A DNA stretch of 33,994 nucleotides. Origin: a virus (taxonomy: Duplodnaviria > Heunggongvirae > Uroviricota > Caudoviricetes). The translations under genes and the position numbers were made by a program. The stretch lies in the IMG/VR virus record IMGVR_UViG_2585427621_000012, one strand, 5' to 3'. Below are positions 3,593-32,398 of this stretch, piece by piece. The notes beneath the pieces are model-generated. The model was given only the letters and a program-made list of their open reading frames with translations. It did not search any database and was not told the DNA's origin. The first letter of the stretch is position 1, and every line of letters begins with the position of its first letter.

Positions 3593-6040
3593 TTAACCGT
3601 CATGCATCATGCTGGCACGGGCGCGCGCACGTTTATCCCGCTCGTATTTTTCGAGCGCATCCTGTAACTGGCGGTCAAGCTGTGTCCCCGGCGCAGTACC
3701 ACCCGTCAGGCTGATGTGATATTCGTTTTTACTCTGGTCCACATAAGAGCGGCCAGCCGGTGCCGTGACCGGCTGATAAGCCTGATAGCCTGCATAAGAG
3801 CTGGTCGCCGGAATATAACCACCGGTGCCATACGTGGCGGCATGAGTTCTGGCGGCGGTCTGGTCAAGTGTGTCTGACTCTTTGTTGATAACACCGAGTT
3901 TTTCCAGTACCCAGTCAATACCACTGCGCAGTTTGTTGAACGCATTAAGCGGCAGCATCAACGCGTCAGCCAGTGCCTGCCCGAACATGACGCCCGTGTC
4001 ACGGCAACGGTTCAGGGTGTCCTGGGTGGCTTTGACCGGGGCAATCAGTTTTTTAAACCACTGCCACGCGGCCTGTAACTTTTCACCCAGCCAGTCAAAC
4101 AGCGGCTTAAGTGGCGTGAACAGTTCCCCCACCGGCGCAAATGCAGCTTTCAGCCCTTCAACCACACCGCCAAAGAATGCGCTGACAGGCTCCCAGTATT
4201 TACGGATAAGCAACGCCCCGGCGACAATTGCAGCCACCACGGCCACAACCGGCCAGCTAATCGCCCCGATGGCCGTCATAACAGCACTGCCAACCGTCGT
4301 GAAGATTGCCCCCATTGCGCCTGCTGCCGCGATGATGGCATTAATGCCGGTGATAACCGGCCAGGCTACAAGACCAATTGCACCGATGATGCCAATAAGC
4401 GCCAGTGCGCCACCGACAATAAGGCCGATGGTTGACGCCAGTGATTTGTTTTTCTGGATCCAGCCGTCGAGTTTTAACACATACTTTGTGGCCGTCTGCG
4501 TGAGATTACGCAGTGCGCCTTCCTGTTGGTCAAACAGGTCAGTCCCCACCGCCTCATAAGCGGACTGAAACTCCTTAAAGTCACCGCCGAGGTTGTCCTG
4601 CATGATATTTACCAGCTCTGCGGTCTTCCCGTCTGAGGCTTTAAACGCAGCGGTCAGTTTGTCCAGCTTTCCGGTTGAGGCGGCAGTCATCAGCACGGCG
4701 GCGGCTGAACTGGCCTCCTCCCCGAAAATGGTTTTCATGTATTCAGCCTGCTGGGCAGTACCGAGCCGGTTTTTCTCAAAACTGGCCTGCATTTCTTTCA
4801 GAATGGTAAATATTGGTCGGGTATTCCCCTTGCTGTCTGAGGTTTTCACTCCAAGCTCTTTGAGTGCATCCCATGCTTTTCCCGTCGGTGCCTGCAGGCG
4901 ACTTAACACGGCACGGCTTCCCGTCCCCGCCATTGAGCCTGTGATTTTTGCATCATGCAGCGCCCCGACCATTGCGGCGGTTTCTTCAATGCTGACACCG
5001 GCATTTTTTGCCACAGGTGCGGCATAGGTCAGCGCATCGCTCATACCGTCAAAATCGGCGGCGGTTTTGTTCATCGTCATGGAGAGAACATCCCCGATAT
5101 GAGCAACCTTATCGTTTGAAAGCTGAAAGGCAGATTTCATCCCCATCAGCAGGGCGGCGTTTTCTTCCATCGTGCGACGGTTCGCCAGCGCCATATTCAG
5201 CGTGACCGGCGTTGCCGCCTGAATGGCATCAACATCCCCACCCGCTTTCGCGATGATAATCTGTGCACCGGCCGCATCATCCGCCGAGGCGGCGGTATTG
5301 TCGCCGAGCTGGCGCGCCTGCTTGCGTAGCGCGGCCATTTCGGCGGAGTCTTTTGCCACACCGAGCACGGCCTGTAATTCTGAGTTTTTCTGCGCAAATT
5401 CATAACCGGGCATCAGCAGCTTAACACCGGCCATCGTTCCCGCCGCCGCAATCCCCACACCGGCAGCGCCCACTGAGGCCATATTTCCGGCCAGCTCCTT
5501 TCCTGCCTGATAGCGCTGTTTTACTGCGTTAAGTTTTGCCTGTTGCGCACTGACACGCGCCAGCGCGTCACGCTGCCGGTTAAGCTGTGCGGTGGTTTCA
5601 CTGATACGGTTTTTCAGCCCCAGCTCATCATGTGCAAGATTGCGGGTATTAATTCCCACAGCGGCCAGTTCCCGCTGCTGGCGTTTAACGGAATCCGTCA
5701 GGCGGTTATATTTCGCCTGTAAGTCCTCCGCCGCACGCTTTGCGGATTCCAGCACTTTCGCCTGAGCACGGGTCGGACGTTCGGTGTTTTTAAACTGTGT
5801 GGCAAGGGCTTCGGCCTCCTGCCGTGCCTTTTCAAGTGCATGACCAGTCACGGCGAGCTGTGCGCTGGTCTTGCGGAATCCCTCAATACGGGATGCCTGC
5901 CCGTTCAGCTCGCGCAGTGATTTTTGTGTTTCCCGGATATCCCCCGACAGCGACTTACTCGCTGTGCGGATGGATTTAAACGGGCGGGATGCCTGGTCAA
6001 CAGCCCTGAGCAATACCTGTAATTTTACATTGTTACTCAT
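3593..6040 (-). CDS. T: Tail tape-measure protein gpT
   Basis: 815-aa ORF, Ala/Gly-rich with coiled-coil and hydrophobic segments; P2 gpT size and position. Confidence 0.9.
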   Translation of the reverse strand: MSNNVKLQVLLRAVDQASRPFKSIRTASKSLSGDIRETQKSLRELNGQASRIEGFRKTSAQLAVTGHALEKARQEAEALATQFKNTERPTRAQAKVLESAKRAAEDLQAKYNRLTDSVKRQQRELAAVGINTRNLAHDELGLKNRISETTAQLNRQRDALARVSAQQAKLNAVKQRYQAGKELAGNMASVGAAGVGIAAAGTMAGVKLLMPGYEFAQKNSELQAVLGVAKDSAEMAALRKQARQLGDNTAASADDAAGAQIIIAKAGGDVDAIQAATPVTLNMALANRRTMEENAALLMGMKSAFQLSNDKVAHIGDVLSMTMNKTAADFDGMSDALTYAAPVAKNAGVSIEETAAMVGALHDAKITGSMAGTGSRAVLSRLQAPTGKAWDALKELGVKTSDSKGNTRPIFTILKEMQASFEKNRLGTAQQAEYMKTIFGEEASSAAAVLMTAASTGKLDKLTAAFKASDGKTAELVNIMQDNLGGDFKEFQSAYEAVGTDLFDQQEGALRNLTQTATKYVLKLDGWIQKNKSLASTIGLIVGGALALIGIIGAIGLVAWPVITGINAIIAAAGAMGAIFTTVGSAVMTAIGAISWPVVAVVAAIVAGALLIRKYWEPVSAFFGGVVEGLKAAFAPVGELFTPLKPLFDWLGEKLQAAWQWFKKLIAPVKATQDTLNRCRDTGVMFGQALADALMLPLNAFNKLRSGIDWVLEKLGVINKESDTLDQTAARTHAATYGTGGYIPATSSYAGYQAYQPVTAPAGRSYVDQSKNEYHISLTGGTAPGTQLDRQLQDALEKYERDKRARARASMMHDG

Positions 6041-7047: not shown

Positions 7048-8238
7048 TTAATTGCTGTTAACCGAGGTGACCAGATTTGCCAGGTATTTATCGGTGATAC
7101 GCTGGCGCAGGGTCAGGTTTTCAAGAGGAGGTACCGGTGTATAGTCGTAGTCGATATACAGTTTTCCGGCCTTGAGGGTTTCCGCATCGCTGGATTCTTC
7201 GCTGAACCAGCAGGTCGCATCCACGATATAGCCGTTTGTTTTCAGCTCACGGAATTTGGCATTGATGCCGTCAACGATGTCGCGAATCAGCGTTGCGGTG
7301 ATGGGCTTGTCCACCGCCCACATGTGCGCCTCAGCCATCGTGTCGGCCAGCACCTGCGCGGTGCGGGTGTAGTTTTCAAAGAGGAACAGCGGGTCATCAG
7401 AGCAGGTACGGTTACCCCAGAAGCGGAAACCGTCGCGGCGAATCAGCGTAGTGACGCCTGACTCGTTAAGCAGGTCAGCATCGGTGCCGGACTCCTGCAA
7501 ATCCCAGAATACAGATGCGCTGATGCCGTTAACACCGTTTACCCCGACGTTGGACAGCGTTTTATGCCAGCCCTGCTCCTGGTCGATTTTCGCGCGCAGA
7601 CCCAGCGCACGGGCGGTGGCATACGCGGTGGCGGTGGTGCTGCTGACCGTATCCCATGCGAGGAAATCCAGCCAGATGACCATCAGCTCACGCTGGCTGA
7701 AATTCTGGCGGTAGGCTTTCACCTCGGAAATGGTTTTACAGCCCCATGCGCTGATATACCCGAAAGCGCGCAGCTTCTGACAGACTGATGCCAGTGCAAC
7801 AGCCACCTCTTTGGTGTCCAGTCCCGGCACGCCGAGAATACGCGGTTTAACACCGGTTACCGACTCTGCCGCCAGCAGGGCTTTCAGTCCGGTATACTGA
7901 CCGTTTTCGTCAGTGGTGCCGATGATATTGGAAACGGTCTGCGCGAGTTTCGTTTCTTCGTCGTCGCCGGTGCCGTCTTCAACACGCACGACAACGGTAA
8001 CCGGTTTTGACTGGTCAGCGATGGCCTGCAACGATGCCGCCAGCGTGCCTTTTTTACCGGCCTTTGCAATTGCGCTCTGCACATTGGTAATCAGCACAGG
8101 TTTATTGAGGGGGAAGGTTTCCGCATCCGCATCGCTGGCCGTGCAGACCATGCCGACAATGGCGGTGGATACGGTGGAAATGACGCGGGTGCCGTCGTTA
8201 ATCTCCAGCACCTGCACGCCGTGATGATAATCACTCAT
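7048..8238 (-). CDS. FI: Contractile tail sheath protein gpFI
   Basis: 396-aa ORF, P2 FI size and position. Confidence 0.9.
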   Translation of the reverse strand: MSDYHHGVQVLEINDGTRVISTVSTAIVGMVCTASDADAETFPLNKPVLITNVQSAIAKAGKKGTLAASLQAIADQSKPVTVVVRVEDGTGDDEETKLAQTVSNIIGTTDENGQYTGLKALLAAESVTGVKPRILGVPGLDTKEVAVALASVCQKLRAFGYISAWGCKTISEVKAYRQNFSQRELMVIWLDFLAWDTVSSTTATAYATARALGLRAKIDQEQGWHKTLSNVGVNGVNGISASVFWDLQESGTDADLLNESGVTTLIRRDGFRFWGNRTCSDDPLFLFENYTRTAQVLADTMAEAHMWAVDKPITATLIRDIVDGINAKFRELKTNGYIVDATCWFSEESSDAETLKAGKLYIDYDYTPVPPLENLTLRQRITDKYLANLVTSVNSN

Positions 8239-8296
8239 CCGTTTAACTCCGTGGTTAATGGGTGAGTGATATTTCAGTTGTGCCGGAGATGTCAGG

Positions 8297-8890
8297 CTAT
8301 TTGTCCCGGTTGGCTAAGGGATGACACAATTTATTCTTTGTCGCTGATGAGGGGAATTTTTTATAGAGCGTGGACAGGCCAATATCAAAAATCAGCGCCA
8401 CACGTTGACGAGATTCCCCCGCAGCCAGCAACCGTCCGACCTGCTCCCACTCACTCGTGGTGAGTTTCGGTCGTCTGCCACCAATACGACCTTTGGCTCT
8501 GGCCGCTTCCAGTCCGGCGCGTGTCCGCTCGACAATGAGTTCTCGCTCCATTTCTGCCAGGGCCCCCATCACATGAAAGAAAAAGCGCCCCATCGGCGTG
8601 CTGGTATCAATAGCATCCGTCAGGCTGCGAAAATTAACGCCGCGTTCGCGCAGTTCCTCAACCAGAATGACCAGATGCCGCATACTACGCCCCAGCCTAT
8701 CCAGCTTCCAGACTACCAGAGTGTCACCTGCTGATAATGTTCTGAGCAGTTTTTTCAGTCCCGGTCGGTCGGACTTCGTGCCGCTGATTTTATCCTCAAA
8801 ATCAGCTCACATCCTGCACACTCCAGCGCATTACGCTGCAATTCCGTGTTCTGGTCATTTGTTGACACGCGTACATAGCCAATAAGCATG
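8297..8890 (-). pseudogene. Serine DNA invertase (Gin/Hin/Pin/Cin family), frameshifted as sequenced
   Basis: N-terminus MLIGYVRVSTNDQNTELQRNALECAGCE (8890 downwards) and C-terminal 128-aa ORF (...VVWKLDRLGRSMRHLV...GRIGGRRPKLT...) are in different frames; one missing base in a T-run (plus-strand A-run 8788-8791) relative to the expected ...ELIFEDKISGTK... reading. Confidence 0.7.
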
Positions 8891-8916
8891 AGCATCTCCC
8901 TGAATAAAAACCGGAG

Positions 8917-9450
8917 ATGATGCCAGTTACCCGTTATTTCTGCATTTTCATAAACGTTGGTTTGGGAGAAGGTTCGGCATTACCCGTTGGTGTGCCTGTT
9001 CCGTGGCCTTCAGCCACTCCGCCGACAGGCTGGCTGAAATGCAACGGGGCGGCTTTTTCTGCTGAAGAATACCCGGAACTGGCAAAGGTTTACCCGACAA
9101 ATAAATTGCCTGATTTACGTGGTGAGTTTATTCGTGGCTGGGATGACGGACGTGGAGTGGATAACGGAAGGGGATTATTGACGCTTCAGGACGGTGCGAT
9201 TGTCAGTCATAACCACTATTGGGGAATCTGGACTTCACGAACTAACGACCAGACTCTGGAAAGTTTTACAGGCACCACGATTTTAAAACAAATCACGCCC
9301 CTGTCTCCGGCCATTAACTTCGATAATTACCCAATTCCCAACCCGGCTATTACAGAGGGTGGTGTTGTTGCGGCAACGACTAAACCTGCAGGTGCGAATG
9401 AAACACGCCCACGAAATGTCGCTTTTAACTATATTGTGAGGGCTGCATAA
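8917..9450 (+). CDS. Alternative tail-fibre C-terminal cassette (Sv'-like), silent in this orientation
   Basis: Conserved tail-fibre C-terminal motifs (LPVGVPVPWPSATPPTGW..., LPDLRGEFIRGWDDGRGVD); no upstream constant part on this strand; the first 28 nt lie outside the invertible segment and are probably not coding. Confidence 0.6.
   Translation: MMPVTRYFCIFINVGLGEGSALPVGVPVPWPSATPPTGWLKCNGAAFSAEEYPELAKVYPTNKLPDLRGEFIRGWDDGRGVDNGRGLLTLQDGAIVSHNHYWGIWTSRTNDQTLESFTGTTILKQITPLSPAINFDNYPIPNPAITEGGVVAATTKPAGANETRPRNVAFNYIVRAA
8945..8970. repeat. Invertase crossover site, left (26 bp, hix/gix-like)
   Basis: TTTTCATAAACGTTGGTTTGGGAGAA; its reverse complement matches 10877-10902 at 20 of 26 positions, including an identical 15-bp block TTCTCCCAAACCAAC/G. 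Confidence 0.65.
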
Positions 9451-10052
9451 TGAATAACGCAGAATTAAACAGTGAATTAATTGCCACTATGGCAGGAGAA
9501 ATTACTGTTTATAACTTTGATGTCATGAGTCGGGAATATATTTCAGCTTCAACTGAATATCTTGCTATTGGTGTCGGCATTCCGGCATATTCCTGTTTAG
9601 ATGCCCCAGGCGCATACAAAGCTGGTTATGCAATCTGCCGTTCTGCAGATTTTAACTCATGGGAATATGTGCCAGACCATCGCGGTGAAATCGTCTTTAG
9701 CACCGAAACAGGAGAATCAAAAGAAATCACCGCTCCGGGTGATTACCCTGATAATACAACCACTATCGCCCCGTTAACGCCATACGATAAATGGGATGGT
9801 GAGAAATGGGTGACGGATACCGAAGCACAGCATAGCGCCGCAGTAGAAGCGGCAGAAACACAACGCCAGTCGCTGATTGATACTGCAATGGCTTCCATTA
9901 GTCTGATTCAGCTGAAATTACAGGCCGGACGGAAGCTGACGCAGGCAGAAACCAACCGACTTAACACGGTGCTGGATTACATTGACGCGGTGACGGCAAC
10001 AGATACCAGCACCGCGCCGGATGTCATCTGGCCTGAACTGCCGGAGGCGTAG
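9450..10052 (+). CDS. Tail fibre assembly protein, alternative copy (U'-like)
   Basis: 200-aa ORF with the conserved Tfa C-terminus (...LDYIDAVTATDTSTAPDVIWPELPEA); start overlaps the stop of the preceding cassette (TAATG). Confidence 0.75.
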   Translation: MNNAELNSELIATMAGEITVYNFDVMSREYISASTEYLAIGVGIPAYSCLDAPGAYKAGYAICRSADFNSWEYVPDHRGEIVFSTETGESKEITAPGDYPDNTTTIAPLTPYDKWDGEKWVTDTEAQHSAAVEAAETQRQSLIDTAMASISLIQLKLQAGRKLTQAETNRLNTVLDYIDAVTATDTSTAPDVIWPELPEA

Positions 10053-10496
10053 GCCATTCAATATCTGGCGCACTGGCGGTATCGACCAGCTCCAGTGCGT
10101 CCAGATAATCCAGCCACAAATTATATTGTGCCAGTTCCTCACCTTTCAGACGACCAATAGCGGCTTTACCGGGCCATTGCTTACTGTTCATGTATTCGTT
10201 GGCCTGGTTAATTAGTAGCTGTCTTTCTGATTCAGTAATTTCAATAAGTTCTTCATGCGTGGGTGGAGGAATATCTGCCACGCAGGCAGCCCATCATCTC
10301 CGCATGCGGAATTACTGTGACGTTCAGTCCATTAATACACTGATAATATGTTGTTCGCTTCAGCCATAAACTCACTGATAATATTTTGATTTACTTCCTT
10401 AGCGTCTGATAAATCCCATCCCTCTGATTTATATTTATCAATCATATCCACAGGGAAAAAAGCATTATGCCTTGCGCTATAAACATATTCGTTCAT
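10024..10496 (-). pseudogene. Tail fibre assembly protein for the active orientation, apparently split across frames
   Basis: N-terminal 54-codon ORF (10332-10496, MNEYVYSARHNAFFPVDMIDKYKSEGWDL...) and a GTG-initiated 85-aa ORF (10024-10281, conserved Tfa C-terminus ...LDYLDALELVDTASAPDIEWPTPP) are in different frames, separated by stops. Confidence 0.5.
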
Positions 10497-10516
10497 ATAA
10501 ATCACCCTGAATAAAA

Positions 10517-11716
10517 TTACTCACCAACAGCCCACCAACTGTAATTCATCGATACCGTGTCGCTGGTTGATGACGTTCTGTAAGCAGAATTAAAGCCGGT
10601 TAACGTTGGGCCTTCTGCAGTCATCACGAACCCTCGCCCAGCGCCTAAAGGCGCACCGCCATCACCAGAATGAGTAAGCATGGCGCAGTCCGCTTTTTTG
10701 GGGAAAGGGATGCTGAATGTAATTCTCATTGTTTGCGTCGATAATGTCGGCGTAACCGCACCACGACCATATTGCAGGATTTTACCGTTGGGTAATTTCA
10801 TCCATCCATCACCACTGGCAAAAGAGGCCATGTCCGGTATCTGATTTTCCCCTGTCCCCACATCCCGTTTTGCCGCTTCTCCCAAACCAAGGTATGCGAG
10901 AAGACCGGCAACATCCTTTCCACTCAAATGAGTCAGCGTCTCATCCAGTGGCTGCTTACCTGACAGCGCATTGTTAATGGTGGTGCTGAATTTCGGGTCA
11001 TTGTTAATGGCCGCGGCAATTTCTTTCAGTGTGTCCAGCGTGTCTGGCGCGCCGTTAATCAGAGCGGTAATAGCGGTCTGAACAAACTCAGTGGTCGCAA
11101 TCCGCGTGGTGTTATTTCCTGCGGCAGGCGTTGGCGCTTTTGGTTCTCCGGTAAATGTCGGATTATGTTTCTGCGCATACTGGGTATGAGGATCCTGTGC
11201 GGCAATGTGGTTTCTCATCTGGTCATCCACATACAGCCTTAATTCCAGGACTTTATCATCCACGTATTTACGGGTCGCCAGTACCACCGACGGGTCGATT
11301 TTCAGCGTGATGGCTTCGGTATTCGTGACAACCAGAATCATGCGGATAGTCTGGGTACGACCGCTGCCTTCCTGTAACTGCGGTTTGTACGTTTCCGGGC
11401 AGTTCGCCACCGCAATGAGTACGCCTTCATCATCATAAAGCCCAATCTCACGGATCCAGAATCCGCCCTCGTTCTCAGGGATGATTTGCTCCGCAATAAT
11501 CTGGCTCTGGTTGTTCGGGTCAACACTCAGAAGATTCAGCGGCGCGATGCGTTTCTGGTTAATAAGTTTTGTCTGTGCCGGGTCAGGTGTCGGCAAGACA
11601 CCATTTGCATCACCAACGGCCATTTGCGTCAGATTCAGCTTACTGCCGAGCATCGTCGCGTTAGCCAGCCGTGCCGCGCCCTGATTAGTCAGAATGGCGT
11701 AGTATTTCACTGTCAT
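10517..11716 (-). CDS. H: Tail fibre protein (gpH-like), active orientation
   Basis: 399-aa ORF; N-terminal about 250 aa resemble P2 gpH (...GGFWIREIGLYDDEGVLIAVAN..., ...NDPKFSTTINNALSGKQP...); C-terminal part differs and begins at the crossover site (..YLGLGEA..). Confidence 0.85.
   Translation of the reverse strand: MTVKYYAILTNQGAARLANATMLGSKLNLTQMAVGDANGVLPTPDPAQTKLINQKRIAPLNLLSVDPNNQSQIIAEQIIPENEGGFWIREIGLYDDEGVLIAVANCPETYKPQLQEGSGRTQTIRMILVVTNTEAITLKIDPSVVLATRKYVDDKVLELRLYVDDQMRNHIAAQDPHTQYAQKHNPTFTGEPKAPTPAAGNNTTRIATTEFVQTAITALINGAPDTLDTLKEIAAAINNDPKFSTTINNALSGKQPLDETLTHLSGKDVAGLLAYLGLGEAAKRDVGTGENQIPDMASFASGDGWMKLPNGKILQYGRGAVTPTLSTQTMRITFSIPFPKKADCAMLTHSGDGGAPLGAGRGFVMTAEGPTLTGFNSAYRTSSTSDTVSMNYSWWAVGE
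10877..10902. repeat. Invertase crossover site, right (26 bp), inside the tail-fibre gene
   Basis: TTCTCCCAAACCAAGGTATGCGAGAA; imperfect internal dyad (TTCTCCCAAACC / GGTATGCGAGAA) around a central AA; encodes YLGLGE at about residue 270 of H. Confidence 0.65.
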
Positions 11717-23773: not shown

Positions 23774-25744
23774 TTAAAGGTCATCAATTAAACCTAAAGG
23801 CAAACCGTCCTCACCAACCGAGCTATAATGAGCGATAATATTCGAAAGTTCACCAGTAGAAAACGAATTAGGCAAATCATTATCAACTAATATAATCTGG
23901 CACGGAACATTTTTTCTTTCTGCTTTTTGAACTGTATTCAATAGTTGTTCATAAATATTTTGATACTTCATCGGATCTGACATTCCCTCAAGGTCATCCT
24001 CGAATGCAAGAGTTTCTTTTGAATATTTTTCCTTGGTCTGTTTCCCTAAATATTTGCCAACCGTATCAAATATCAAAAGTAAAGGATGGTTAACATTATG
24101 ATCTATTGCATAATCAAGAATAGACAAAAGATACCCAATAGAAGAAATAGTTCTCAAACCTCCGGATGTTATTTTAAAATATTCTTTTTCTCTTATAACA
24201 GGAATGTAATAGCTTTCAGAGATTTTTATCCCCGTTCTGTTTTTGATATTAATACCCTTCAAATACTGACTAAATCTATCACCCAAACCTTGTAAAATGC
24301 CCTCCATGCTAGGTGCGTTTTTCTTTAACGCCTCCAAGCGTTCAGTTAATGCTTCAATATCTTTTCTCAGTACCTGATACTTTTCAAGCAGTTCCTCTTG
24401 CTGGTTTCTAACCTTCAAATCTTTTACTAACTGCTCCCTAACCTTCTCATTTTTTGAGATCTCTTTAATATAAAAATCTCTCTGAGTCAAGAATGGTGTA
24501 ATCATTGACTGGCTTTCTTCGTCAATCAATTCTCTCAACTCGTCAAGTCGTTCATCTAATTCCTTTTTATAACCTGATTCTTTTTTTAATTTAAATGACA
24601 TTTCTGAGATCATGTCATTAATATTTCGTCTACGTCGACTAAGTGAATTCAACTCTTCATTAAGATCTTTTTCTGATGAAATTTCAAATGGAAAATCAGA
24701 ATCATCTATTTTAATGTGGCTATCACAGACTGGACAGGAAAATACTTCCTTATCCAATACACCAATGCGAGAATTTGCTGTTTTAATCGCTTTGAGTTTT
24801 TCAATATCATTATCATAGTCATTTTTTAACCGCGAATATTTATCAATCTTATCCTCAAGCGCAGTAATATTTAATATGCACTCTTTGTATTTAAGCGAAA
24901 TAAAATTGTGAGCATCTTTCAATTCTGTATACTGTATGGAATCCGCTTTCATATTTTTATCGAGAGCAGACAAACCTGCAACAAGTTCTTCTAAAACAAG
25001 ATCTATCCTATTAATCTCATCATCAATTGATTCAATCGTTTCATAGTCTGTATCGCGAAGAAATTCAGATATTATCTGATACTTCCTATTTAATTCCGTT
25101 ACTAAACTACTTTTTGCAGATATTTCACCTTGGAGTCTGGCGATGCTTTCATCCAACACATTGAACATGTATTTAAAAACTTCTTTCGTAAATGCGTAGC
25201 GGGACCAATCACCCAATCGCAAGAAAGATTTACTACCAATATCATCCTGACTTACATAAACAAATTTATATATATTTCTAAAACTTAACCTGCGCATCTG
25301 TGAATGAGCTTTAGAAGGAGACACCTTAATTTCAATCTTTGGAAAATTAAGACTATCAAGTAAAAACTCCGAAAAAACACCATCAACATTTGATAATGGG
25401 CTATAATTAGGAGCGTATTTTTTCGGAAAATGTTTATGTAAATCATCAAACTTACAACGATAAACTTCTATTGCTTTTTTATGATCATAGATATCTCTTA
25501 CGATTGTGAATACAGTATCATTGATCACTACTTCAAGAGCAGCATAGTTTACTGATGTTTTTATTTCATCTGCTAAATCTATAGAGCTAGCACCTAAAAG
25601 ATAATTAATAAACTCCAGAATGCTTGACTTACCTGTGTCAGAGTCTCCGTAGATAACATTGAGACCTTTATAAAAAGTAGTGACGTAGTTTTTACGAACG
25701 CCAACAAGAATCAAACTATTGATATTGAGATATGATTTCATCAT
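23774..25744 (-). CDS. Rad50/SbcC/SMC-like ABC ATPase with coiled coil and CxxC zinc hook (candidate defence ATPase, LmuB-like)
   Basis: 656 aa; Walker A GDSDTGKSS near the N-terminus; long low-complexity charged, helical middle with CPVCD at about residue 336; C-terminal signature-like TSGG, Walker B LLLIFD, and ILVDND; AT-rich codon usage. Confidence 0.7.
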   Translation of the reverse strand: MMKSYLNINSLILVGVRKNYVTTFYKGLNVIYGDSDTGKSSILEFINYLLGASSIDLADEIKTSVNYAALEVVINDTVFTIVRDIYDHKKAIEVYRCKFDDLHKHFPKKYAPNYSPLSNVDGVFSEFLLDSLNFPKIEIKVSPSKAHSQMRRLSFRNIYKFVYVSQDDIGSKSFLRLGDWSRYAFTKEVFKYMFNVLDESIARLQGEISAKSSLVTELNRKYQIISEFLRDTDYETIESIDDEINRIDLVLEELVAGLSALDKNMKADSIQYTELKDAHNFISLKYKECILNITALEDKIDKYSRLKNDYDNDIEKLKAIKTANSRIGVLDKEVFSCPVCDSHIKIDDSDFPFEISSEKDLNEELNSLSRRRRNINDMISEMSFKLKKESGYKKELDERLDELRELIDEESQSMITPFLTQRDFYIKEISKNEKVREQLVKDLKVRNQQEELLEKYQVLRKDIEALTERLEALKKNAPSMEGILQGLGDRFSQYLKGINIKNRTGIKISESYYIPVIREKEYFKITSGGLRTISSIGYLLSILDYAIDHNVNHPLLLIFDTVGKYLGKQTKEKYSKETLAFEDDLEGMSDPMKYQNIYEQLLNTVQKAERKNVPCQIILVDNDLPNSFSTGELSNIIAHYSSVGEDGLPLGLIDDL

Positions 25745-25853
25745 TTCTCCTTGAAGACTTGATTTATAACAGAGTTTAACTTAGAGGTAGGCAATGCTTG
25801 TAGCGGTAACAATGCTTCGGATAGTCGTTTTATTTCTTTAAAATATCCATCAG

Positions 25854-26252
25854 TCAATGAGCTAGCAAATTCCTTACCTTTTTCAGATAAAAATAATTTA
25901 ACACTCTCATTATTTTTTTCTCAGCTGAGAGCAATCCCCGCAATGACATAATTTTTATAAGATATTTCACTTTGGAATTGTCGAATAAGATATCTACATT
26001 TGTTGAAAAACTCTTTATTGTATAAGTTAACTGGGACTCGACACAAGCAGGCTTTTTCCCCGAAACTGTAAGAGCATAATCAATTTTTGATGGGTTTTTT
26101 ATCAGATACATAAAAATTTGTATTTTATTAATATCTAATGATAACACTCCTTTTTTGCTATGAGATAATATAGATATAGCAATGGCAAGCATAGCAAAAT
26201 TCAAGCTATACTCTTCATCAAGAGGAATATACGGCAAGTTATTTTTCTTCAT
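25854..26252 (-). CDS. Small middle-component protein of the three-gene module; as sequenced 132 aa, possibly about 170 aa if a frameshift at an A7 run is resolved
   Basis: ORF between the hydrolase and ATPase genes; a second open frame (25741-25912, ...SVKLFLSEKGKEFASSLTDGYFKEIKRLSEALLPLQ...) continues to a TGA overlapping the ATPase ATG. Confidence 0.55.
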   Translation of the reverse strand: MKKNNLPYIPLDEEYSLNFAMLAIAISILSHSKKGVLSLDINKIQIFMYLIKNPSKIDYALTVSGKKPACVESQLTYTIKSFSTNVDILFDNSKVKYLIKIMSLRGLLSAEKKIMRVLNYFYLKKVRNLLAH

Positions 26253-27462
26253 GATTACCTCGCCGTAATTGCTCCAAAGTTTCTACGCTGGTTTCAGATG
26301 ACCAGACAATATCCCTGTCATTTTTGTTAGCCAGTTGATGCAACATTCCTTTCTTATGTATCGTTTCTAAACTTTTTATAAGAGAATCTAACGACGACTT
26401 ATCCTCTTGGGCTATTCGTCTATGAACAGCAGCAATAAATTTATCTGGGGAAATTGAATTCGCGATATATTGCTCATACTCTTCCTGGTAAATCTCCCTT
26501 ATTTTAGAATACAAATGACCAAGTAGTTTCCTATCGTAATCACTCGTAAAAATATTTCTCGCAAGCTCAGCATTATAATAATATTCCTTTGCATGCATAG
26601 CGATATCCTGATGTATATCTGCGACAATCATTTTTAAGACGAAATACTCATTATCATATTGTTTCTCATCAGAAAAACGCTCAACACATATCTTCTTGGG
26701 TGCTTCTAAATTTATCTGCTGAATAAATTGCTTTACCGCAACAAACACTGTAGACGAGCTGTTTTCGGGCTTGCAAATTGAGCTATGCCCTTCATTAACT
26801 GCAATTGAGTTATTTCGTTCACTATCCATCGGTAATGCGCTTTTTTTATCAACTATAGTGTCATGAGAACCATAAACATATCTAGTGATAGGAAGTTTTT
26901 TGCTACAATTTATCCAGCGCCTATTCAACGTATCGGTCGCTTCACTTAACAATCCAAGATCTACTAACTGAGCATTTGAAGATACCATTGAAGTTATATT
27001 CGCCAATTTAGCACCAAAGTGAGGGACTGCTAACGAAATGAATCCAATTATATTAGATTGTTCCTCATGCTCAACTTTTTTTAGAATTAGATTTTTTGAT
27101 ATTACCCCCCCCATACTATGGGCGATTATTATAATTCGAGAGTAATCACTTAGCGTTACCCTAATCTCAGTATACAATAACTCAGCTATTTCATCAGTTG
27201 GTAAATTTCTCTCTAACTTATTTTTCTTAGAGAAAATACGAGCCCATAATCCTGACGTTTTAGCATACGTTTGTGTAAATTTGGTGAAATAATTGAAACA
27301 TGCAATATCAAATACATTGCCAATGTCTTCATCTTCTGCTAATAGTTTTGGAAATGAAGTTTCTTTATTAAAGTTCCATGTTTCCAAACCACCATTTAAT
27401 CCATGTACAAATAGTATCAGGCTATCTTTTTTCTCGTGGCTTATCCATTCAACCATGCTCAT
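26239..27462 (-). CDS. Lipase-like alpha/beta-hydrolase (serine hydrolase) with C-terminal helical domain (candidate effector, LmuA-like)
   Basis: 407 aa; oxyanion-hole motif LILFVHGLNG, nucleophile elbow AHSMGG (AxSxG), downstream GSHDT (Asp) and NEGHSS (His) consistent with a Ser-Asp-His triad; about 170-aa helical C-terminus; AT-rich. Confidence 0.7.
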   Translation of the reverse strand: MSMVEWISHEKKDSLILFVHGLNGGLETWNFNKETSFPKLLAEDEDIGNVFDIACFNYFTKFTQTYAKTSGLWARIFSKKNKLERNLPTDEIAELLYTEIRVTLSDYSRIIIIAHSMGGVISKNLILKKVEHEEQSNIIGFISLAVPHFGAKLANITSMVSSNAQLVDLGLLSEATDTLNRRWINCSKKLPITRYVYGSHDTIVDKKSALPMDSERNNSIAVNEGHSSICKPENSSSTVFVAVKQFIQQINLEAPKKICVERFSDEKQYDNEYFVLKMIVADIHQDIAMHAKEYYYNAELARNIFTSDYDRKLLGHLYSKIREIYQEEYEQYIANSISPDKFIAAVHRRIAQEDKSSLDSLIKSLETIHKKGMLHQLANKNDRDIVWSSETSVETLEQLRRGNHEEK

Positions 27463-32284: not shown

Positions 32285-32398
32285 CAATTTATCGTGAATA
32301 TATTCATCACAAGTGCCTACTATTGGTGGCTAAATTTCAGCCACACGAAAAAAGCGATTAGTAGTAGCAAAAAAAAGTACCACTCGGAGGGTTTTCTG

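Follow-up and report, generated by a model that had tools for sequence, protein, structure and literature searches.

The prophage and its invertible segment

The window, i.e. the whole stretch of 33,994 nucleotides that was analysed, represents an entire P2-like prophage with yegQ and yegR as its chromosomal neighbours. It is near base-for-base identical to the prophage of Escherichia coli O157:H7 TW14359. It carries a gene for a serine DNA invertase of the Gin/Pin family, located between the tail-sheath gene and an invertible segment of 1.9 kb (Table 1). As deposited, this gene is divided into two fragments of 44 and 128 amino acids which are on record as 'Phage DNA invertase' of E. coli O157:H7 str. 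SS17 (AIF94414.1 and AIF94413.1), and the fibre protein (AIF94418.1) and ABC-3C component 4 (AIF94438.1) of the same strain are found in matching gene order; by these proteins the window is attributed to SS17. Among the complete genomes of RefSeq there is neither accession NZ_CP008805.1, which we take to be that of SS17, nor a record that matches window positions 8250-8950 in full or with more than 99.7% identity. To judge from the annotation of the identical TW14359 region, the cargo at positions 23774-27462, flanked by the portal and replication genes, comprises an AAA-family ATPase and an ABC-three-component system; P2-like phages are known to accommodate cargo at this hotspot.

Table 1. 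Features of the invertase and tail-fibre locus, and run-length differences from relatives, in window coordinates
Feature	Position	Strand	Remarks	Basis
Gin/Pin-family serine DNA invertase gene	8297-8889	-	two frames: A, 8755-8889; B, 8297-8797	translations, Pfam, intact relatives
Frameshift site: T4 run on coding strand (plus-strand AAAA)	8798-8801	-	T5 in relatives	alignments, base-by-base check
Putative enhancer-like region	8805-8867	-	5' coding part of invertase gene	pattern scan
Invertase-proximal crossover site (left inverted repeat)	8945-8971	.	collinearity with TW14359 breaks here	repeat search
Invertible segment	8972-10875	.	two alternative fibre C-termini and two tail-fibre-assembly genes	BLAST HSP orientations, annotations
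Silent alternative fibre C-terminus and assembly gene	8917-10052	+	ORF 8917-9450; assembly gene 9450-10052, 200 aa	ORFs
Tail-fibre-assembly gene of expressed set, broken here	10024-10505	-	CCC to CC at 10278-10280; corrupted duplicated stretch 10303-10353	alignments, direct-repeat search
Tail-fibre gene (P2 H-like) as joined	10517-11716	-	constant part plus variable end, 399 aa	ORF
Distal crossover site (right inverted repeat)	10876-10902	.	within tail-fibre gene; inversion breakpoint relative to TW14359	repeat search
Plus-strand T4 to T3	8272-8274		between invertase and sheath genes	private: no complete genome above 99.7% over 8250-8950
Plus-strand A5 to A4 (coding T5 to T4)	8798		invertase gene	0 of 530 genomes
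CCC to CC	10278-10280		fibre-assembly gene	alignment with TW14359
T8 to T7	25913-25919		C-terminus of ABC-3C middle component 4 changed	48 contigs, 1 of 95 complete genomes
CC to C	32343-32344		spacer between repressor-like gene and integrase gene	0 of 753 complete genomes holding the segment

In the DNA-invertase subclass, the segment is characteristically flanked by two crossover sites, each about 26 bp long, in inverted orientation. Here, the two arms comprise 27 nt, are 81% complementary and both read CTTCTCCCAAACCAA(C/G)GT...; the segment borders proposed in the first-pass annotation coincide exactly with this inverted repeat. The reading frame of the fibre gene extends across the right repeat and encodes a protein of 399 amino acids, whose exact sequence occurs on 151 contigs, among them those of SS17, EC4115, SS52 and JEONG-1266. 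The silent set on the opposite strand corresponds to the set that is expressed in TW14359, consisting of a phage tail protein and the tail fiber assembly protein WP_001057694.1. The assembly gene of the set expressed in the window is intact in TW14359 and in strain 319 (147 amino acids, WP_001008233.1) and is split here into ORFs of 57 and 85 amino acids.

Orientations of the BLAST HSPs reveal that the segment of TW14359 is inverted relative to the window, with breakpoints that lie within both crossover arms, while strain 319 is collinear with the window; EC4115 and SS52, too, have the orientation-dependent 399-aa fibre protein of the window. Among the best 40 O157 records, a gp53-like gene adjoins the invertase gene in 20 and a phage tail protein gene in 16. 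The occurrence of both orientations among near-identical O157 prophages with an intact invertase gene indicates that the tail-fibre switch is active in the O157:H7 lineage. An invertible tail-fibre segment of the Gin/Pin type in a P2-like prophage is already known and represents textbook biology; biologically, only the variable orientation of this segment among near-clonal O157:H7 genomes is noteworthy. Strain 319 has a C to T exchange in the core of the distal crossover site (AAACCAAGG to AAACTAAGG) at position 5010 of its examined region, which equals window position 10888, and its fibre gene is annotated in two pieces by PGAP.

The interrupted invertase gene

Translation of frame A from position 8889 yields MLIGYVRVSTNDQNTELQRNALECAGCELI, a stretch of 30 conserved residues (not 28 codons as initially counted), followed by 14 out-of-frame residues and a stop codon at 8755-8757. 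The resulting product of 44 amino acids retains the catalytic serine in the YVRVST motif. Frame B is conserved from position 8797 (EDKISGTKSDRPGL..., EDKISGTKSDRPGLKK...) down to the stop at 8297. The 128-aa ORF (8297-8683), which the first-pass annotation had described as the conserved C-terminal part in another frame, is indeed conserved; it is, though, just the portion of frame B past the first ATG, and conservation of that frame begins upstream of it. In Pfam searches the 44-aa piece covers positions 2-31 of the Resolvase profile and the 128-aa piece covers positions 79-144 plus HTH_7. Combined, the two fragments span most of the profile positions of Resolvase and HTH_7 that are matched by the repaired protein.

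An uninterrupted invertase reading frame is present in every related complete genome examined and is absent from the window as deposited, which harbours a -1 frameshift at the run listed in Table 1. Alignment with TW14359 shows exactly one base fewer in the coding-strand run GCTGA-TTTTGAGG, with T4 instead of T5, and thus bears out the original claim that one missing base in a T-run splits the gene into two frames. The run had been placed at 8788-8791, i.e. 10 bases away from its true position. Those bases are a plus-strand T-run that represents the AAAA of GAT AAA ATC on the coding strand and is the same in relatives. When the base is restored, the protein is WP_000905094.1 (197 amino acids), which TW14359 and strain 319 encode at the corresponding position; the expected reading ...ELIFEDKISGTK... 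put forward in the first-pass annotation is the exact sequence of this intact protein. The frameshift is genuinely part of the deposited sequence.

A probe of 91 nt centred on the run matched 530 complete E. coli genomes, and the T4 allele was found in none of them. The best matches to this probe all have one extra base, and all of the closest genomes combine the T5 run with an intact protein of 197 amino acids, which occurs in identical form on at least 1000 contigs. The 44-aa fragment is present on a single contig only, that of SS17.

A functional change of frame, be it by programmed -1 ribosomal frameshifting, by transcriptional slippage or by a slipped-strand on-off switch, has next to no probability in our view. 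The two frames overlap, a -1 shift at AUU-UUG would produce a near-native protein, and the zero-frame codon after Leu UUG is AGG, a rare Arg codon. Against this, a slippery heptamer of the type X XXY YYZ is absent, and tracts known for RNA polymerase slippage or phase variation are far longer than the four bases found here. In all relatives the protein is encoded in a single frame. Since T4 never recurs in the 530 genomes it is neither a conserved nor a recurrent switch state, and we have rejected programmed frameshifting, slippage and phase variation on these grounds.

Invertases of this subclass normally depend on a recombinational enhancer in cis, bound by Fis and situated in the 5' part of the invertase gene, and the 5' coding part of the gene studied here contains a putative enhancer-like region. 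A pattern scan returned a 15-mer that agrees with the Fis consensus at 8805-8819 as the sole full match within 8700-8960, the background being 0.34 matches per 100 bp. A second putative Fis-type site at 8853-8867 agrees at six of seven specified positions, and the centres of the two sites are 48 bp apart, which is the spacing rule for Fis sites. The sequence CAGCGTAATG is situated between both sites, as in the description of the Hin enhancer, an element of 65 bp with Fis sites at each end (PMC3798978), with which the putative enhancer of the window is consistent. A distance of 4 nt separates the shortened run from the distal Fis-type core, and the run is not located between the two sites, whose spacing the deletion therefore leaves unchanged; altered enhancer geometry was rejected as a consequence of the deletion for this reason.

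Occurrence of the 128-aa ORF elsewhere turned out to be uninformative as a sign of a frameshift because five of the six places are genes cut at contig ends. The sixth (ENA metagenome contig k119_13449, positions 1-380) includes upstream DNA in which the T5 run is normal; there, the C-terminal ORF of 128 amino acids is called because of a TGT to TGA nonsense codon at Cys24 and not because of a frameshift. In Logan short-read contigs of related strains we noticed frequent breaks at about the same point of the invertase gene, with contigs starting at the internal ATG region. These breaks are likely to be caused by the near-identical pinE paralog.

Origin of the one-base deletion

Whether the missing base is real or artefactual had been left open in the first-pass annotation. 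The evidence now at hand strongly favours an artefact, and we consider it very probable that the frame of the invertase gene is broken by a homopolymer miscall in the Ion Torrent-based assembly of SS17, which affects an otherwise well-known kind of system. The SS17 genome was sequenced on the Ion Torrent PGM with reads of 165 nt, assembled by a combination of de novo and reference-based procedures and closed manually (PMC4321836). The PGM has a documented tendency to produce false homopolymer indels (PMC3446914, PMC4079958). The published comparison of strain SS52 with SS17 lists 139 homopolymer differences and 56 homopolymer frameshifts, versus 7 and 2, respectively, for SS52 and TW14359 (PMC5552260, Table 3).

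Three hallmarks of such an artefact are present. First, the difference is a single-base change in run length (T5 to T4) in an assembly derived from flow-based sequencing. Second, the allele is private to one assembly, to judge from both the 91-nt probe and the 44-aa product, while near-identical genomes agree with each other. Third, there is an excess of differences of the same type. Outside positions 10303-10353, the alignment of the window with TW14359 over 34 kb contains five indels, all of them -1 run contractions, and three substitutions (at 7591, 7670 and 10891). As a control, TW14359 and strain 319 were compared over the 6.2 kb that they share, with five substitutions and no indels as the result. 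Three of the window indels fall within the stretch shared with strain 319 and are absent from that strain. Searches of the genome collection revealed that the contractions at 8272, 8798 and 32344 are private to the SS17 assembly.

The contraction at 25913 is not private. It affects the gene for ABC-3C middle component 4 (25741-26252, minus strand), whose product has 132 instead of 170 amino acids with the last third replaced, and it may be due either to genuine polymorphism caused by slippage or to an error that recurs among assemblies. The idea that all five contractions are private errors was rejected on account of the T7 allele being present in 48 contigs and one complete genome; its occurrence in other, independent assemblies implies that not every contraction need be an error.

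Positions 10303-10353, inside the fibre-assembly gene and 1.5 kb from the frameshift, are nearly a repeat, in corrupted form, of the 30 nt that follow. This arrangement was found in no complete E. coli genome, and both comparison genomes, TW14359 and strain 319, are clean. It has the appearance of a mis-join between the ends of two contigs and shows that the invertase and fibre region was hard to assemble. Such difficulty would result both from the paralogous O157:H7 segment seen in JEONG-1266 and from a culture in which the segment is present in either orientation. Copying of the stretch from the paralogous segment linked to pinE was considered and is not supported: the paralog is normal at this place, and a join of contig ends fits better.

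The substitutions at 7591 and 7670 are located in the sheath gene (7048-8238) and absent from TW14359 and strain 319. One of them leads to a P190L exchange in the tail sheath, and the exact P190L protein is absent from a collection of 15 billion proteins, so that the allele led to no close relatives of SS17 in which the T-run might be read. This sheath allele may be a base-call error, too.

The rival explanation is a real, strain-private deletion which would turn the SS17 invertase gene into a pseudogene, leaving a 44-aa peptide with the catalytic serine and nothing else; the prophage would have lost its own ability to flip the segment, and any inversion would rely on another invertase acting in trans. 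Several points speak for it. The frameshift is part of a deposited, finished sequence with 137-fold coverage whose ambiguous areas were Sanger-checked according to the authors (PMC4321836), and a five-base run is short for an Ion Torrent error at the level of the consensus. Prophage genes do decay by frameshifts; real-looking invertase pseudogenes exist, such as that with the nonsense codon at Cys24 in the metagenome contig, and a decayed sister segment is located beside pinE in JEONG-1266. Yet the allele is present in no other genome or contig, and the same 34 kb harbour four other run contractions and the mis-join. Moreover, if indels are, by a rough estimate, about ten times rarer than substitutions, the two or three substitutions observed would predict about 0.2 real indels, compared with the five that are found. 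The published excess of homopolymer differences is specific to SS17 (PMC5552260). Taken together, we regard a real deletion as unlikely.

We therefore prefer a miscalled run and propose the following model. An ordinary recombinase of the Gin/Pin family would flip the 1.9-kb segment between the two 27-nt inverted crossover sites, and inversion would swap the C-terminal end of the tail fibre together with its assembly chaperone. The T5 run would have been undercalled as T4 at 8798-8801 in the Ion Torrent-based assembly rather than shortened by mutation in the bacterium. The real gene of SS17 would then encode intact WP_000905094.1, and the switch would work as in the sister strains.

If the T4 allele were real after all, for which we see only a small chance, the super-shedder strain SS17 would be devoid of a prophage invertase and its fibre would be fixed in the 399-aa variant unless pinE flips the segment in trans. 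The first-pass annotation had gone further and concluded that a real frameshift locks the fibre segment in one orientation. This is not a safe conclusion because the deletion affects neither the crossover sites nor the enhancer-like region and because a second, intact invertase, pinE, is encoded in other O157:H7 genomes.

The main value of these findings lies in the caution that they call for. In the SS17 record, two fragments are annotated as 'Phage DNA invertase', a defence protein is truncated and a fibre-assembly gene is broken. Such lesions would be read as signs of prophage decay or of a locked host-range switch, but the best explanation for them is the sequencing platform combined with a mis-join. 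Where SS17 serves as reference in comparisons, such sites are counted as strain-specific frameshifts.

Relation to known DNA invertases

DNA invertases of this subclass are about 190 amino acids long and combine a resolvase catalytic domain at the N-terminus with an HTH_7 DNA-binding domain at the C-terminus. The repaired protein has this architecture, with Resolvase (E = 2.7e-52) spanning residues 3-135 and HTH_7 (E = 4.7e-13) residues 138-181. Its initial assignment to the Gin/Hin type is corroborated by the match of residues 1-182 to Gin of phage Mu (PDB 3UJ3; E = 1e-93), and MLIGYVRVSTNDQ aligns residue for residue with Gin in entry 4M6F, the catalytic serine near residue 9-10 being present. 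Common to Gin and the invertase of the window are the location of this serine in YVRVSTNDQ and the IFEDK motif, the latter of which is interrupted here by the frameshift. As in the G segment of Mu, the gene adjoins an invertible segment that holds alternative tail-fibre ends and assembly genes and is bounded by inverted crossover sites. The two systems differ in that the host element is a P2-like prophage and not Mu, that the C-terminal tail of the protein is longer by 15 residues, and that the reading frame of the window is broken as deposited.

Closer relatives of the gene are found in the P2-like phages pro483, S164 and P2 of O157:H43 T22 from Escherichia and MET_P1_103_31 from Salmonella, which share 94-96% DNA identity over the whole invertase region of 701 nt. 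Records of these phages name the gene DNA invertase, recombinase family protein or hin, and two of them list an adjacent tail-fibre gene. None of the seven P2-like phage records that cover the 701-nt region in full reaches 99% identity, and thus none has the exact allele of the window.

Pin, encoded by pinE of the e14-type cryptic prophage, represents another relative; the pinE product of O157:H7 strain JEONG-1266 is 90% identical at the protein level (162 of 181 positions). Like the gene studied here, pinE of this strain adjoins an invertible fibre segment, a second such locus in its genome (NZ_CP014314.1, 3608500-3616500). The fibre and assembly genes beside pinE are marked as frameshifted by PGAP, and pinE encodes an intact protein of 184 amino acids. 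Unlike at the window locus, it is thus the fibre and assembly genes that are decayed pseudogenes while the invertase gene is intact; the annotation of the window suggests the reverse, for which sequencing error is the most likely cause. A pinE locus of the JEONG-1266 type could both supply an invertase in trans and cause breaks in assemblies.

The Hin/hix system of Salmonella with its Fis-dependent enhancer relies on an enzyme of the same subclass and on crossover sites of the same TTCTC..AAACCAAGGT.. type. A further, putative parallel is the pair of enhancer-like Fis-type sites 48 bp apart in the 5' coding region, which flank CAGCGTAATG. In contrast to Hin, which controls a flagellin promoter, the system of the window controls tail-fibre ends, and its putative enhancer is recognised by motif. 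Gin, Cin, Pin and Hin are able to complement or substitute for one another.
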